Of a stretch of 64,000 bases of DNA, positions 31,140-55,573 are shown piece by piece. The position numbers and the translations under genes were made by a program. The stretch covers positions 35,845 through 99,844 of the forward strand of contig VBKF01000103.1 in the NCBI GenBank assembly GCA_005888095.1, in the 5' to 3' direction. Source of the stretch: Deltaproteobacteria bacterium (GTDB taxonomy: Bacteria > Desulfobacterota > Binatia > DP-6). The notes beneath the pieces were generated by a model. It searched no databases and was not told where the DNA came from. It saw only the letters and a program-made list of their open reading frames with translations. Every line of letters begins with the position of its first letter. The first letter of the stretch is position 1.

Positions 31140-31433
31140 ATGCGCGCGGTCGGGCTGAAGGTGCTCAAAAACAAGCTGAGCGAGTACGTACGCCTCGCTG
31201 CCCGGGGGGAGACCGTGCTGGTCACGGACCGCGACCGGGTGGTGGCCGAGCTGGGTCCGCCGCGAGAGGGCCGGGCCCCGAGGCTCGCCGACGCCCAGCT
31301 CGCCGAGATGATGCGGAAGGGGATCCTCGCCCCGCCACTCGTGTCGCGCGAGACCCCATTGCCTCCCCGGAAGCCGATCGCGCCTCTCGCCGAGCTCCTG
31401 CGCGAGCTCGACCAGGATCGCGCGGACCGGTGA
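31140..31433 (+). CDS. vapB: type II antitoxin (Phd/YefM or VapB-like) paired with a PIN toxin
   Basis: 97 aa; MRAVGLKVLKNKLSEYVRLAARGETVLVTDRDRVVAEL is the typical antitoxin N-terminal fold. Its stop overlaps the vapC GTG start. Confidence 0.75.
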   Translation: MRAVGLKVLKNKLSEYVRLAARGETVLVTDRDRVVAELGPPREGRAPRLADAQLAEMMRKGILAPPLVSRETPLPPRKPIAPLAELLRELDQDRADR

Positions 31434-31813
31434 TCTACGTCGACACCTCCGTGGTGCTGGCGGAGCTTCTCGCCGAGGATCGCTCGCCACCGGCGCGGCT
31501 CTGGGAGTCCGACCTCGTGTCGAGCCGACTGCTCGAGTACGAGCTCTGGACCCGGGTGCACGCGCGTAAGCTGACGTCCACCCACGGCGACGCGGCGCGC
31601 GCGATCGTGGCGAGGATCGCGTTGCTCGACCTCTCGCCGCTCGTCCTCGGACGGGCGCTCGACCCGTTTCCCGTCGCGGTCCGCACGCTCGACGCCTTCC
31701 ATCTGGCGTCGATGGACTATCTCCGAGGGGGCGGTCAAACCGTCGTGCTCGCAAGCTATGACGACCGTCTCGTCCGCGCCGCCAGCGCGCTCGACTTCCC
31801 GCTCTTCGAGTGA
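31430..31813 (+). CDS. vapC: PIN-domain ribonuclease toxin
   Basis: 127 aa; IYVDTSVV (first acidic residue), internal ...LDAFHLAS and ...SYDD acidic residues of a PIN fold. GTG start overlaps the antitoxin TGA. Confidence 0.8.
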   Translation: MIYVDTSVVLAELLAEDRSPPARLWESDLVSSRLLEYELWTRVHARKLTSTHGDAARAIVARIALLDLSPLVLGRALDPFPVAVRTLDAFHLASMDYLRGGGQTVVLASYDDRLVRAASALDFPLFE

Positions 31814-50663: not shown

Positions 50664-50999
50664 CTACTCCTGCGCCTCATGCCGCGTCGCGCCGGCGGGC
50701 TTGCGGCTCGTCCGCCGCCGCGGCTTGGTCGCCAGGAGGCGGTCCACCTTGAGGTTCAGGTTGACCAGGCTCCCCTGGATGGCCTCGAGCCTGGTGGCGA
50801 TGCGGGCCAGGTCGGCACGGGAAGGGAGGTTCAGCAGGCCGAGCACGGTCTGGACGTTCCGGTCGACGCGTCCCTTGGCCTCGAGCGCCGCCTGCACGGC
50901 GCGCCCGAACGCCTCCGTGAAGCGCGGACTCGCGAACAGGGTCGCGGCGAGCGTCCCGAGCGCTTCCCCACCGAGGCTGCACAGTCGCCTGACGATCAC
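50664..50999 (-). CDS. phasin-family / PHA-granule-associated protein (TIGR01837-like)
   Basis: About 111 aa; helical with VLGLLNLPSRADLARIATRLEAIQGSL and a basic C-terminal tail, typical of polyhydroxyalkanoate granule regulator/phasin proteins. GTG start after GGAGAGAGG; AT-rich promoter region upstream. Confidence 0.55.
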   Translation of the reverse strand: MIVRRLCSLGGEALGTLAATLFASPRFTEAFGRAVQAALEAKGRVDRNVQTVLGLLNLPSRADLARIATRLEAIQGSLVNLNLKVDRLLATKPRRRTSRKPAGATRHEAQE

Positions 51000-51122: not shown

Positions 51123-51383
51123 ATGACCGCCGCCGTCTTCCTCTCCTACTGGACCGGCCTGCGCTTCGTCGCGCCGGACCTCGACCCCGCCGCGCTCGTC
51201 GGGACGGCGCTTGCGCTGCACGTGTGCGACGCGATCATGTGCCGGCTCTTCGCGCACAACAACGGCTACCCGAAGACCCTGTGGACCGGGCTCGGCCTGG
51301 TCGCGGGGCTCTGGGCGGTCGCCGTCCTGATCCTGCTGCCGCGCCGCGGCGGGGCCCCTCCCCCGCCCGGGCGCCTGCCGTGA
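51123..51383 (+). CDS. small hypothetical membrane protein (86 aa)
   Basis: ATG with GAGGAAG 5 nt upstream; two hydrophobic helices and a non-biased composition. Confidence 0.4.
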   Translation: MTAAVFLSYWTGLRFVAPDLDPAALVGTALALHVCDAIMCRLFAHNNGYPKTLWTGLGLVAGLWAVAVLILLPRRGGAPPPPGRLP

Positions 51384-51811: not shown

Positions 51812-53557
51812 TCAGCACGCGCCGCAGGTGTGGCAAGTCGCGGTGTCGCAGGGCGGCGTCTCGATCTCGGCGAGAGCCTTTCGCCGCTCGGCGGCGAGGT
51901 AACGCTTGTCCACCGAGTGATCGATGAAGTCCCACGGCAGCACGGCGTCGAGCGGATACGACCGGTGGACGAAGCGATCGGGGTCGACGGTCTCGCTCCC
52001 GCCGCCGCGGAGCCGCCTGAGCGTCGGCCACCAGGCGTCGGGCTCGGCCGCCAGACGCTCGAGGATCGCCGCCGTGCGCCGGTCGCCGCGCGAGAGCAGG
52101 GTCTGGAGATACGCCTCGCGCGGGCTCTCGACCTCGACCTGCACGCCCGGCATGGCGGCGAGCGCCCGGCCGAGTGCGGCGAGCTTCGCCCGGAGCGAGG
52201 GAATGGCCTCCATCGACTCCCACTGGAAGGGCGTCCACGGCTTCGGGACGAAGGGGTTGATCGAGACGAGGATGCGGCCGACCCGCGGCCGCCCGCCGGC
52301 CGCGAGACGCGCCCGCACCTTGGCGGTCAGGTCGACGATGCCGGCCACGTCCGCGGCGGTCTCCGTCGGCAGGCCGACCATGAAGTAGAGCTTCAGGCTC
52401 TCGACCCCGCTGCCGACCAGCCACTCGGCCGCGCGCAGGATCTCGGACTCGGTCAGGTTCTTGTTGACCACGCGCCGCATCCGCTCCGAGCCGGCCTCGG
52501 GCGCGACCGTGACCGAGCGGTTCCCGTTCCGGCCGAGCGCTGCGGCCAACGCCGGGGTGATCATGTCCGCCTTGAGCGAGGACGGCGACGCGCGGCCGCC
52601 CGCCTCGGCGACCTGCTGGCAGAGCGCCGCTACGCCGGGCAGGCTCGCCATCTCGGCGCCCACCAGGCCGATCGTCCTGCGCTCCTGAAGGCCGCGGGCA
52701 ACGCTCGCGCGGAGCGTCCCGAGGCTCCGGTAGCGGACCGGCCGGTACATGAACCCGGCCGCACAGAACCGACAACCCCACTCGCAGCCGCGGCTCGTCT
52801 CGACCAGGTACATGTCTCCGAACACGGCCTCGGGGGCCAGCACCTCGGAGTTGGTCGCGAAGCGATCGAGGTCGGCGACGAAGCGCCGGCGGACGCGCCC
52901 GTCCCCGGCACCGTGGTAGCTGACCGCGACCAGGTCGCCCTGCTCGTCGTACACCGGCGCATGGCGGTCCGGCCGGTACACCCCCGCCACGGCCTCCGTC
53001 CGCTCGAGGATCGCCTCGCGGCCGAGGGGACCCGCAAGGGCGCGGTCGAGGAACTCGCCCAGCATCTCCTCCGCCTCGCCGATCAGGAAGAGATCGACGA
53101 ACTCGGCCAGCGGCTCGGGATTGAGAAACGTCGCCGGCCCCCCTGCGATGACCAGCGGCGTGCGCGGGCCGCGCTCCCGACTCCGGAGCGGAATACCGGC
53201 CAGACGGAGACAGTGGAGGACGTTCAGGTAATCGCTCTCGAACGAGATCGAGAACGCCACCACGTCGAAGTCGCCGACGGAGCGGTCCTGCTCGAAGGAC
53301 CGCAGCGTACGCGGCCACGCGGCGCGCTCGCCGTCGGCCAGGAAGGCCCGGTCACAGGCGACGCGCGCATCCTCGGACAGGAGCCGGAGCACGGCCTGGA
53401 AGCCGAGGTTCGCCATCCCGACCGGATACGTGTTCGGGTAGACCAGACACACCGACAGCGGACCGCTCGGGCCCGGAGCGAAGAGCCTGCGCTCCGCGGC
53501 CAGGCGGGCGAGACGGCGGTCGTCCAGTCGAGGCATCGTCAGGGGTCGATACTGCAT
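51812..53557 (-). CDS. B12-binding-domain radical SAM protein (large, uncharacterised family)
   Basis: About 581 aa; N-terminal B12-binding-like domain (LSVCLVYPNTYPVGMANLGFQ), radical-SAM cluster ETSRGCEWGCRFCAAG, and a Cys-rich C-terminus (CDTATCHTCGAC). Start at ATG MQYRPL. Confidence 0.75.
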   Translation of the reverse strand: MQYRPLTMPRLDDRRLARLAAERRLFAPGPSGPLSVCLVYPNTYPVGMANLGFQAVLRLLSEDARVACDRAFLADGERAAWPRTLRSFEQDRSVGDFDVVAFSISFESDYLNVLHCLRLAGIPLRSRERGPRTPLVIAGGPATFLNPEPLAEFVDLFLIGEAEEMLGEFLDRALAGPLGREAILERTEAVAGVYRPDRHAPVYDEQGDLVAVSYHGAGDGRVRRRFVADLDRFATNSEVLAPEAVFGDMYLVETSRGCEWGCRFCAAGFMYRPVRYRSLGTLRASVARGLQERRTIGLVGAEMASLPGVAALCQQVAEAGGRASPSSLKADMITPALAAALGRNGNRSVTVAPEAGSERMRRVVNKNLTESEILRAAEWLVGSGVESLKLYFMVGLPTETAADVAGIVDLTAKVRARLAAGGRPRVGRILVSINPFVPKPWTPFQWESMEAIPSLRAKLAALGRALAAMPGVQVEVESPREAYLQTLLSRGDRRTAAILERLAAEPDAWWPTLRRLRGGGSETVDPDRFVHRSYPLDAVLPWDFIDHSVDKRYLAAERRKALAEIETPPCDTATCHTCGAC

Positions 53558-53783
53558 ACTCTCGGCCCCCGTCCGCCTCAAGCCAACACCCCGCTGCCGC
53601 GCCGCTCGCCGGGGCGAGCCCACGGCGAGCACCGAAAGTGACCGGTGCGCCGGCAGCGCGCCGGGACGGGAAGGGAGACCGCCGTCTGCCGGCCGAAGTC
53701 GAGTCTGCCGGCGCCCGAGGAGCGGCCCTGCGCAAGCGCCCGGGCGGCTTGCCGCCGTAATGGGGATGTAATACCGTTGGCCC

Positions 53784-54017
53784 ATGGCGATCGTCACCGC
53801 GTCCCGTCTGACGAGCAAGTACCAGGCGACGATCCCCGTCGAGGTGCGGCGGGTGCTGCGCCTCAAGCAGGGCGATGCCGTCCAGTTCGAGATCGACGGC
53901 GAGCGCGTGACGCTGCGGCGTCAGACCGCGTCGGATCGTACCTACCTGCGCGGGGTGGAGGCCAACCTCTCGGAGTGGAACTCGCCGTACGACGACGAGG
54001 CGTATGGCGACCTATGA
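53784..54017 (+). CDS. mazE: type II antitoxin, AbrB/MazE/SpoVT family
   Basis: 77 aa; swapped-hairpin motif KYQATIPVEVRRVLRLKQGDAVQFEI and an acidic C-terminus. Confidence 0.8.
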   Translation: MAIVTASRLTSKYQATIPVEVRRVLRLKQGDAVQFEIDGERVTLRRQTASDRTYLRGVEANLSEWNSPYDDEAYGDL

Positions 54018-54342
54018 GCCGTGGAGTGTGGTGGTCGTGCCCTTCCCGTTCGTGGACCGGCGACAGACAAAGCGCCGCCCTGCCGTGGTGCTCTCGCCGG
54101 AGCGGTTTCAGGCCGAGCACCAGTGCTCCGTGCTCGCCATGATCACGGACGCCCGCAACCCTCGCTGGCCGTCGGACGTGCCGATCCGCGATCTCACCGC
54201 CGCGGGGCTTCCCCTCGCCTCGGTGTTTCGCTGCAAGGTGTTCACGCTCGACAGTCGCCTGATCCTGTCCCGCATCGGCACCCTCTCGAGCACCGACCGG
54301 AAGGCAGCCGGCCGAGCGTTGCGCGCGGCGATCGTCCGGTAA
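54004..54342 (+). CDS. mazF: type II toxin, MazF/PemK-family endoribonuclease
   Basis: 112 aa; VVVVPFPF...KRRPAVVLS...AMITD matches the PemK/MazF fold. Overlaps mazE by 14 nt. Confidence 0.85.
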   Translation: MATYEPWSVVVVPFPFVDRRQTKRRPAVVLSPERFQAEHQCSVLAMITDARNPRWPSDVPIRDLTAAGLPLASVFRCKVFTLDSRLILSRIGTLSSTDRKAAGRALRAAIVR

Positions 54343-54382
54343 GCAAGGTCCTCTCCCGCGCCGCCGCCCCGGGGCGCGCCGC

Positions 54383-55573
54383 CTACTCGGCGCCGCGACG
54401 CAGGAAGGTCGGGATCTCGAACTCGTCGCCCTCCTCGGGCGCCGGCGGCGACGGCGCGGCCGCTTGCCGGCCCTCGGACACCGGCGCGTCCTTCCGGCGA
54501 CGCTGCCAGGTGGGCACGTCGAGCTCGTCGTCGGCGACCAGACCGTGGCGGCGGACGGGCCGCCCGCCCGCCTGCACGCCGCGCAGCTCCGACCCGTGAC
54601 GTCCCATGCCCTTCTCGACGCGCTCGCCGAAGCCGGTGGCGATCACCGTGATGCGCATCTCGTCGCCCATCGACTCGTCGATGACCGCGCCGAAGATGAT
54701 GTTGGCGTCGTCGTCCGCCTCCTCCTGGATGAGGGTGGCCGCCTCGTTCACCTCGTGCAGCGTGAGATCGGGGCCGCCCGTGATGTTGATGAGGACGCCC
54801 CGCGCCCCCTGGATCGACACGTCCTCGAGGAGCGGGCTCGAGATCGCCTTCTGGGCCGCCTCGACGGCGCGGTTCTCGCCCTGGGCGATCGCCGCCCCCA
54901 TCATCGCCATGCCCATCTCCGACATGATCGTGCGCACGTCGGCGAAGTCGAGGTTGATGAGCCCGTGGACGGTGATCAGGTCCGAGATGCCCCGCACGGC
55001 CTGGAGGAGCACGTCGTCGGCCTTCTTGAAGGTCTCCAGGATCGAGGAGTTGCGGCCGGCGACCGACAGGAGGCGCTGGTTGGGGATGGCGATCAGCGTG
55101 TCGACGTTCGCCTTGAGCTCCCGCATGCCGTCCTCGGCCTGCTTCATGCGGCGCTTGCCCTCGAACGTGAACGGCTTGGTCACCACGCCGACGGTGAGCG
55201 AGCCGATCTCCTTGGCCACCCGGGCGATCACCGGCGCGGCGCCCGTGCCCGTCCCCCCACCCATGCCCGCCGTGATGAAGATCATGTCGGCGCCGCCGAG
55301 GTGCCCGCGGAGCCGTTCGACGTCCTCCTCCGCGGCATGCTTGCCGACCGCGGGGTTGCCGCCGGCGCCGAGGCCGCGGGTCAGCTGCTCGCCGAGCTGC
55401 ACCTTCACCGGGGACAGGTTGGCGCGCAGCGCCTGCGCGTCGGTGTTGGCGGCGATGAAGTCGACGCCGGGCAGCCCGGCCGCGATCATCGTGTTCACCG
55501 CGTTGCCACCGCCCCCGCCGACGCCCACCACCTTGATCCGCGCCCCCTCGCCGGCATCGACGAACTCGATCAT
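54383..55573 (-). CDS. ftsZ: cell division protein FtsZ
   Basis: GGGTGTG tubulin signature and an N-terminal [15 protein letters not shown]. Start ATG with AGGAGGGG 7 nt upstream. Confidence 0.95.

Follow-up and report, generated by a model that had tools for sequence, protein, structure and literature searches.

In the 64,000-nucleotide stretch of contig VBKF01000103.1 from a Deltaproteobacteria bacterium (hereafter the window), we studied a mazEF toxin-antitoxin (TA) pair situated between the cell-division gene ftsZ and a radical-SAM (rSAM) gene. Comparison with relatives supports the view that mazEF is an accessory insertion. We consider it very likely that the pair is a canonical type II TA operon with a PemK/MazF toxin and an AbrB/PrlF-type antitoxin, that a segment of about 760 bp (approximately 53595-54350) brought it into the ftsZ-rSAM spacer in a recent common ancestor of the window lineage and its closest sister populations, and that its adjacency to ftsZ reflects landing in a permissive, recombination-prone spacer rather than a functional link to division. 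The coordinates of all features are collected in Table 1.

The mazEF insertion between ftsZ and the rSAM gene

A scan for ftsZ among GTDB species representatives placed the organism among 'Deltaproteobacteria'/Binatia-type metagenome-assembled genomes (MAGs). In the closest representative (L011; FtsZ 79% and rSAM protein 77% identical) the gene order is ftsA-ftsZ-rSAM-ACPS, where ACPS stands for a holo-ACP synthase family gene, and the 80-bp spacer between ftsZ and rSAM has no mazEF. Three further relatives, L100, L101 and L102, with rSAM proteins 89, 85 and 83% identical to that of the window, also have ftsZ followed by rSAM, with spacers of 318, 268 and 184 bp. By tblastn, we found no remnants of MazE or MazF in any of these four relatives. 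Several distant lineages (Syntrophaceae, Smithella and others) likewise have ftsZ and then directly rSAM on the same strand. Ancestrally, ftsZ was followed by the rSAM gene in the same orientation at a distance of 80-320 bp, and the opposite-strand mazEF now stands between the two.

The position of the insert could be read from spacer alignments. The L100 spacer aligns to the DNA that flanks the insert in L099 on either side (nt 4-253 and 297-377); L099 is a sister locus carrying a shortened module. This puts the insertion point on the upstream side of rSAM, about 40 bp from its start, and directly after an ftsZ-proximal element of about 220 nt. In the window, the segment adjoining rSAM aligns with the rSAM-proximal end of the spacer in L100, L101, L102, L099 and L011 and is retained ancestral DNA. 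The following segment, 53595-53746, has no counterpart in the empty-site spacers of L100, L101 and L102 and cannot be aligned with the upstream DNA of other mazEF loci.

Homologues of the module are found in very different places. MazF homologues 70-84% identical to the window protein adjoin a BglII-type restriction-modification system, another B12-rSAM gene, GST, DUF6151 and enoyl-CoA hydratase genes, and others. Full-length MazE homologues (70-90% identical) are encoded upstream of mazF homologues at other loci, and the layout with the antitoxin first and overlapping or coupled genes recurs in at least 12 homologous loci. Since the empty sites hold no remnants, the spacers are collinear across the insertion point and homologous modules occur in unrelated contexts, we regard mazEF as an accessory insertion. 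The original prediction, made from the letters of the window, had proposed a small accessory insertion, and the absence of mazEF from L100, L101, L102 and L011 bears this out. Two outcomes had been named beforehand as refuting it, namely mazEF at this locus in all relatives and failed profile searches; both were looked at and neither occurred.

The insertion is recent, and the allele of the window is widespread. The synonymous divergence (dS) of mazF between the window and the sister lineage is 0.16, matching the 0.13-0.19 of the flanking genes, so that the insertion predates the split of these two lineages. The exact MazF sequence was found in 130 soil-metagenome blocks, and 10 independent contigs share the same gene context, with 0-3 single-nucleotide polymorphisms over 53558-54382.

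Toxin, antitoxin and candidate control region

The anatomy of the locus agreed in every detail with the prediction: coordinates, lengths of the two open reading frames (ORFs; 77 and 112 aa), their 14-nt overlap (54004-54017), the 226 bp of intergenic DNA (53558-53783) between the rSAM start (53557, minus strand) and mazE, and the convergent ftsZ. Long chance ORFs are common in genomes of 73% GC, as is the case here. However, mazE and mazF have a third-position GC of 0.90 and 0.88, within the host range, the ratio of nonsynonymous to synonymous substitutions (dN/dS) of mazF is 0.18 between the window and the sister lineage, and homologues are numerous. Therefore, both are real genes and not chance ORFs.

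The proposed assignment to an AbrB/MazE antitoxin and a PemK/MazF toxin was confirmed by Pfam and agrees with fold and catalytic residues. MazF matched PF02452 with 54.5 bits (gathering score 23.1; E 1.6e-14), residues 7-108 covering profile positions 3-107 of 109. An AlphaFold2 model built with 36 homologues had a pLDDT of 94.4 and a pTM of 0.88. The top Foldseek matches of this model were all MazF/PemK toxins (4mdx, 4mzp, 5hkc, 6kyt and 5cr2) with probability 1.0 and TM scores of 0.75-0.83; they come from B. subtilis, S. aureus, M. tuberculosis (MazF-mt1, -mt3 and -mt9) and E. coli and share 18-22% identity with the window protein at TM scores of about 0.8. The protein is accordingly predicted to adopt the MazF/CcdB-type SH3-like beta-barrel with a C-terminal helix. 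Eight residues (R25, P26, T48, W55, D58, R76, K78 and T81) are invariant among 36 members of the subfamily, whose signature reads VVPFPF(T/V)D...KRRPAVVLS...AMIT...W-x2-D. In a profile-to-PDB alignment, R25-P26 and T48 fall on the 'VRP' and 'AAIT' motifs of S. aureus MazF. The arginine and threonine at the positions of Arg25 and Thr48 are catalytic, and their mutation abolishes the activity of B. subtilis/B. cereus MazF (PMC7354611). By analogy, the mazF product is presumed to be a sequence-specific endoribonuclease.

Neither MazE nor MazF matched a PADLOC defence model, and no homologue of MazF was found in the phage collection. A MazF homologue of 70% identity in the Binatia MAG GCA_046327925.1 (L094:5001-5342; L095:5001-5342) looks like an orphan: no antitoxin gene was called upstream of it, where a 100-bp gap separates it from a divergent gene.

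The antitoxin matched PF04014 with 33.2 bits (gathering score 24.7) and the NCBIfam AbrB model TIGR01439 with 31 bits (cut-off 28.3). The AbrB/SpoVT-type DNA-binding domain occupies the N-terminal residues 2-50 or so, and the first 50 residues match the solved AbrB-family regulators 5itm, 2l66 and 1z0r by sequence (E 1e-3). The tail that follows, ...EANLSEWNSPYDDEAYGDL, is acidic, contains W and Y residues and is kept in sister alleles; the C-terminus, EWNSPYDDEAYGDL, is likewise acidic and aromatic, as one would expect of a part that binds the toxin. We presume this tail to be the toxin-binding part. MazE is also marginally above the gathering score of 32 for PF15937, the PrlF family (33.7 bits). 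Classical PrlF pairs with the toxin YhaV (PF15937 Pfam description). We rejected an identity with PrlF-YhaV, as the partner toxin is PemK/MazF and not YhaV and the NCBIfam PrlF equivalog failed with 36.8 against a cut-off of 125.

Just upstream of mazE lies a conserved box of promoter- or operator-like character. It is common to 12 mazEF loci with unrelated flanks, in the form GCTTGCC-N4-GTAAT-GG(G)-N3-4-GTAATACC, and its end is 8-14 nt from the mazE ATG across these loci (about 9 nt in the window), while the DNA further 5' is not conserved among them. Two direct GTAAT repeats, at 53757-53761 and 53768-53772, are 11 nt apart, i.e. one helical turn. From this arrangement we propose that the repeats are a candidate operator for the AbrB-type domain of MazE, overlapping the promoter.

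A 10-nt direct repeat, GTCTGCCGGC, is present twice (53684-53693 and 53703-53712, 19 nt apart) in the non-conserved DNA 5' of the box. In addition, the module is enclosed by the arms of a perfect 16-nt inverted repeat, GCCGGCGCCCGAGGAG, at 53707-53722 (+) and 54431-54446 (-), the second arm being in the 3' coding end of ftsZ (PAPEE). Only 0.09 such exact matches are expected per window. It could have been a scar of the insertion or a duplicate of the 3' end of ftsZ. However, when extended, the alignment is weak, being equalled in 5 of 300 shuffles, and in the sister lineage two positions of the ftsZ arm do not match. The repeat is probably due to chance. An apparent hairpin homology of the L011 spacer to window positions 53600-53625 was dropped, as closer relatives do not confirm it.

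Taken together with what is known of the family, these features suggest how the operon would work. mazE and mazF would be co-transcribed from the conserved box just 5' of mazE and translationally coupled by their overlap; such coupling of mazF to mazE is also suggested by a GAGG 3 nt before the mazF ATG, within the mazE 3' end. A MazE dimer would bind GTAAT-N6-GTAAT through the AbrB-type N-terminal domain and repress the operon, and the acidic and aromatic tail would fill the RNA-binding groove of the MazF dimer. Upon degradation of MazE, free MazF would cut single-stranded RNA at a short specific motif by means of Arg25 and Thr48, and growth would stop. It is by analogy that we infer the RNase activity and its specificity, the neutralisation, the autoregulation and the cellular role, which may be addiction, stress response or phage defence.

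Alleles at the site and alternative explanations

Four states of the ftsZ-rSAM site were distinguished: empty, intact as in the window, antitoxin-deleted and toxin-frameshifted. Three independent assemblies carry the antitoxin-deleted allele, and its flanks are about 94% identical to those of the window. The deletion, which corresponds to window positions 53595-53947, takes away the upstream DNA together with the box and MazE codons 1-55. The orphan mazF that is left is intact, 95% identical to that of the window and keeps R25 and T48. We looked for a translatable C-terminal remnant of MazE in this allele and rejected it, since the open frame offers no start codon (ATG, GTG or TTG). The loss of the conserved box, the presumed promoter, fits with silencing of the orphan mazF.

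The toxin-frameshifted allele (L103, 1-2982) retains mazE sequence beyond the breakpoint of the 353-bp deletion. Its mazF has a 1-nt deletion that shifts the frame, a W55C change by which the invariant W55 is lost, and C41R. Exactly after the mazF stop follows an insertion of 2.3 kb with a gene for a 599-aa PQQ-repeat protein and a 104-aa ORF, and beyond it come the ancestral hairpin element described below and the ftsZ 3' end. It is more parsimonious that the PQQ-repeat gene arrived later than that the original insertion already carried it. The ftsZ-rSAM spacer looks like a hot spot of insertion and recombination.

The side of the spacer next to ftsZ has also changed. In relatives, the ftsZ stop is directly followed by an element of about 200 nt that is predicted to form a long hairpin (68 pairs, consensus energy -108 kcal/mol), 11 pairs of which keep pairing through compensatory changes on both sides. 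The element could be a terminator of the dcw (division and cell wall) cluster, a 3' stabiliser or a DNA palindrome. It was lost in the window lineage, where 54343-54382, the 40 bp between the stop codons of the convergent mazF and ftsZ, keeps about 24-40 nt of an ancestral spacer of about 230 bp. Scanning 53300-54600 and the spacers of the relatives, hairpin element included, against Rfam gave no credible family. We found no intrinsic terminator in 53400-54500, the 40-bp gap included, and the folding energy of this gap was no better than that of shuffled sequences (z 0.05 and 0.74).

Several observations weigh against a canonical, recently inserted and working TA operon. No transposase, integrase or target-site duplication flanks the mazEF segment. 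The composition shift is weak: a shift in GC or codon usage had been suggested as a check, and GC is indeed mildly lowered, at 68.5% (median 73.2%), which is the 6th percentile among windows of equal size, whereas third-position GC is host-like. No match to the sigma-70 promoter consensus was found in 53400-54500, and no Shine-Dalgarno sequence could be read upstream of mazE; because of the latter, the mazE mRNA may have a short leader or be leaderless. None of the NCBIfam models matches MazF, and by sequence it matches solved MazFs only weakly (E 0.04 by itself, 1e-4 when a profile is used), which together argue that it belongs to a divergent subfamily. Finally, the intact mazF without antitoxin in the sister alleles could mean that the toxin is weak.

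This last point leads to the explanation that the window pair, too, is a remnant, decaying or without function, whose weak or silent toxin is carried along neutrally. The sister allele of L096, L099 and L105 lost the antitoxin and the box and retained mazF, L103 has the frameshift and lacks W55, and these deletions and frameshifts suggest a relaxed need for the module at this site. However, both ORFs of the window are intact, R25, T48 and all other invariant family residues as well as the box are present, mazF has the low dN/dS given above, and the allele is widespread and near-invariant in the 10 contigs. We therefore find a remnant unlikely; the mazEF of the window, judged from its sequence, is probably still functional. 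It is extremely improbable that mazEF was ancestral at the ftsZ-rSAM site and was repeatedly lost in relatives. Deletions do occur at this site, as the 353-bp deletion of L096, L099 and L105 and the missing hairpin element of the window illustrate, but an ancestral module requires clean, remnant-free losses in at least four relatives (L100, L101, L102 and L011) whose spacers are collinear across the insertion point. Moreover, distant lineages also have rSAM directly after ftsZ, and close homologues of the module are in unrelated contexts.

The original prediction had pointed to the position beside ftsZ as potentially relevant for division. A functional coupling could take the form of transcriptional collision or antisense on ftsZ/dcw, of ftsZ read-through which silences mazEF and reaches rSAM, or of a preference of MazF for dcw transcripts. 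In its favour, the window allele is without the hairpin that follows ftsZ in relatives, the remaining 40 bp have no terminator-like site and no better-than-random fold, and the module separates rSAM from the ftsZ it once followed. Since mazEF and ftsZ converge at 40 bp without a recognisable terminator and rSAM is separated from ftsZ, transcriptional interference or antisense could arise. More specifically, insertion and hairpin loss would have created terminator-less convergent transcription of mazEF and ftsZ, TA activity would feed back on the 3' end and the stability of the ftsZ/dcw mRNA, and dcw read-through would be both antisense to mazEF and a route for rSAM expression. If true, a growth-arrest module would by accident have become functionally wired to the division operon. 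We give very little credence to coupling with division, and just as little to this particular scenario. The adjacency is found in one shallow clade only and homologous modules are elsewhere; at the same site the module is truncated or frameshifted in sister populations, and the locus is not lost. The adjacency to ftsZ is young, confined to that clade and not preserved by selection there. We see no evidence of a division link for mazEF, and the suggestion that its position matters found no support. We thus favour the accessory insertion of a canonical TA operon into a permissive spacer.

Gene neighbourhood and comparison with known systems

The minus-strand order mraY-murD-ftsW-murG-murC-murB-ftsQ-ftsA-ftsZ is that of the distal end of the dcw cluster, in agreement with the location given in the prediction. 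On the other flank of mazEF follow the rSAM gene and then the ACPS gene. The rSAM gene is TIGR03960-like (355 bits, under the cut-off of 462). It had been called a B12-radical-SAM gene; the 'B12' part of this name has partial backing, the B12-binding family PF02310 scoring 19.7 bits against a gathering score of 32.1 and TIGR03960 falling short as given above. Adjacency of ftsZ and rSAM was seen in L011, L100-L102, L026, L027, L035, L038, L044 and L049 and not in Binataceae representatives, a patchy and recurrent distribution.

Between the ACPS gene and paired ArsA/ParA-like ATPase genes sit two small genes that are kept in all relatives. One (51123-51383, plus strand, 86 aa) has no Pfam match over threshold. 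The other (50664-50999, minus strand, 111 aa) weakly matches the C-terminus of the polyhydroxyalkanoate (PHA) synthase III E subunit (E 2.5e-4, under threshold). A further TA pair, with a Phd/YefM-like antitoxin and a PIN-domain (VapC-like) toxin whose genes overlap by 4 nt, is located at 31140-31813. A second TA system within 23 kb had been claimed: the pair is indeed 22.6 kb from mazEF and its PIN domain exceeds the gathering score, whereas the antitoxin match stays under it.

Table 1. Positions of the features in the window and of the alleles and elements in relatives (L-numbered loci).
Feature	Position or locus	Strand	Description
rSAM gene, TIGR03960-like	51812-53557	-	PF19864 132.8 bits; PF04055 62.7 bits
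Retained ancestral spacer	53558-53594	-	adjoins rSAM start codon; motif GGCTTGAGGC...GTATG on minus strand
Module-associated upstream DNA	53595-53746	+	part of inserted segment
Conserved promoter/operator-like box	53747-53775	+	GCTTGCC-N4-GTAAT-N6-GTAATACC, about 30 nt
mazE	53784-54017	+	ORF of 77 aa
mazF	54004-54342	+	ORF of 112 aa
ftsZ	54383-55573	-	TIGR00065 432 bits; PF00091 and PF12327; last dcw gene, flanks insertion
Phd/YefM-like antitoxin gene	31140-31433	+	97 aa; PF02604 25.7 bits, under gathering score
PIN-domain VapC-like toxin gene	31430-31813	+	127 aa, GTG start; PF01850 32.2 bits, over gathering score
Hairpin element	L099:3340-3530; L096:4340-4545 (-); L100:920-1140; L101:2560-2740		after ftsZ stop
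Empty allele	L100, L101, L102, L011		ftsZ then rSAM, no mazEF
Intact allele	window		full mazEF; hairpin element after ftsZ down to 40 bp
Antitoxin-deleted allele	L096, L099 (same contig as L104), L105		clean 353-bp deletion; mazF intact
Antitoxin-deleted locus	L096:3946-4339; L099:3545-3938 (-); L105:2160-2544		
Toxin-frameshifted allele	L103		mazF damaged; further 2.3-kb insertion

The locus adds one chromosomal MazEF-like module of a divergent, uncharacterised MazF subfamily that is common in high-GC soil bacteria, its relatives being Binatia-like MAGs. In architecture, fold, catalytic residues and genomic behaviour the module is typical, and what goes beyond routine annotation is only the allele series and the lost hairpin downstream of ftsZ. 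The series of empty, intact, antitoxin-deleted and toxin-frameshifted alleles, the last with its additional insertion, documents how, in wild populations, a TA module was gained at one site and then decayed step by step. It shows, too, that the loss of an antitoxin can leave the toxin ORF intact, provided that the conserved upstream box, the presumed promoter, goes as well.

Compared with known MazEF/PemIK (Kid-Kis) systems (B. subtilis EndoA/MazF-MazE, S. aureus MazEF, M. tuberculosis MazF-mt3/MazF6 and E. coli MazEF), the window pair shares the overlapping genes with the antitoxin first. Its antitoxin likewise has an N-terminal AbrB/SpoVT-type domain and an acidic C-terminal tail; the MazE of B. 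subtilis is an exception, being a ribbon-helix-helix (RHH)-type and not an AbrB-type antitoxin. With the solved MazFs the toxin shares the predicted MazF/CcdB-type fold and the Arg-Pro and Thr catalytic positions, and it differs from them by its low identity, its own subfamily signature and the missing NCBIfam match. Plasmids of Azospirillum and Roseomonas (NZ_CP032326.1 and NZ_CP061096.1) carry pairs that PGAP annotates as 'PemK/MazF family toxin + PrlF family antitoxin', with toxins 39-43% identical to ours over 98% of the length. These pairs are plasmid-borne, whereas that of the window is chromosomal. Since they are so annotated, the combination of a PemK/MazF toxin with a PrlF-type antitoxin is already a recognised kind.

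A search for mazEF in a dcw cluster, made within one literature collection, returned nothing. The closest parallel to the behaviour of the site is given by strain-variable chromosomal TA insertions that decay in place. The window site shares with them the presence/absence polymorphism, the homologues in unrelated contexts and, in sister populations, the frameshift of the toxin and the deletion of the antitoxin. It differs in that the module landed directly after ftsZ and split a conserved ftsZ-rSAM adjacency.

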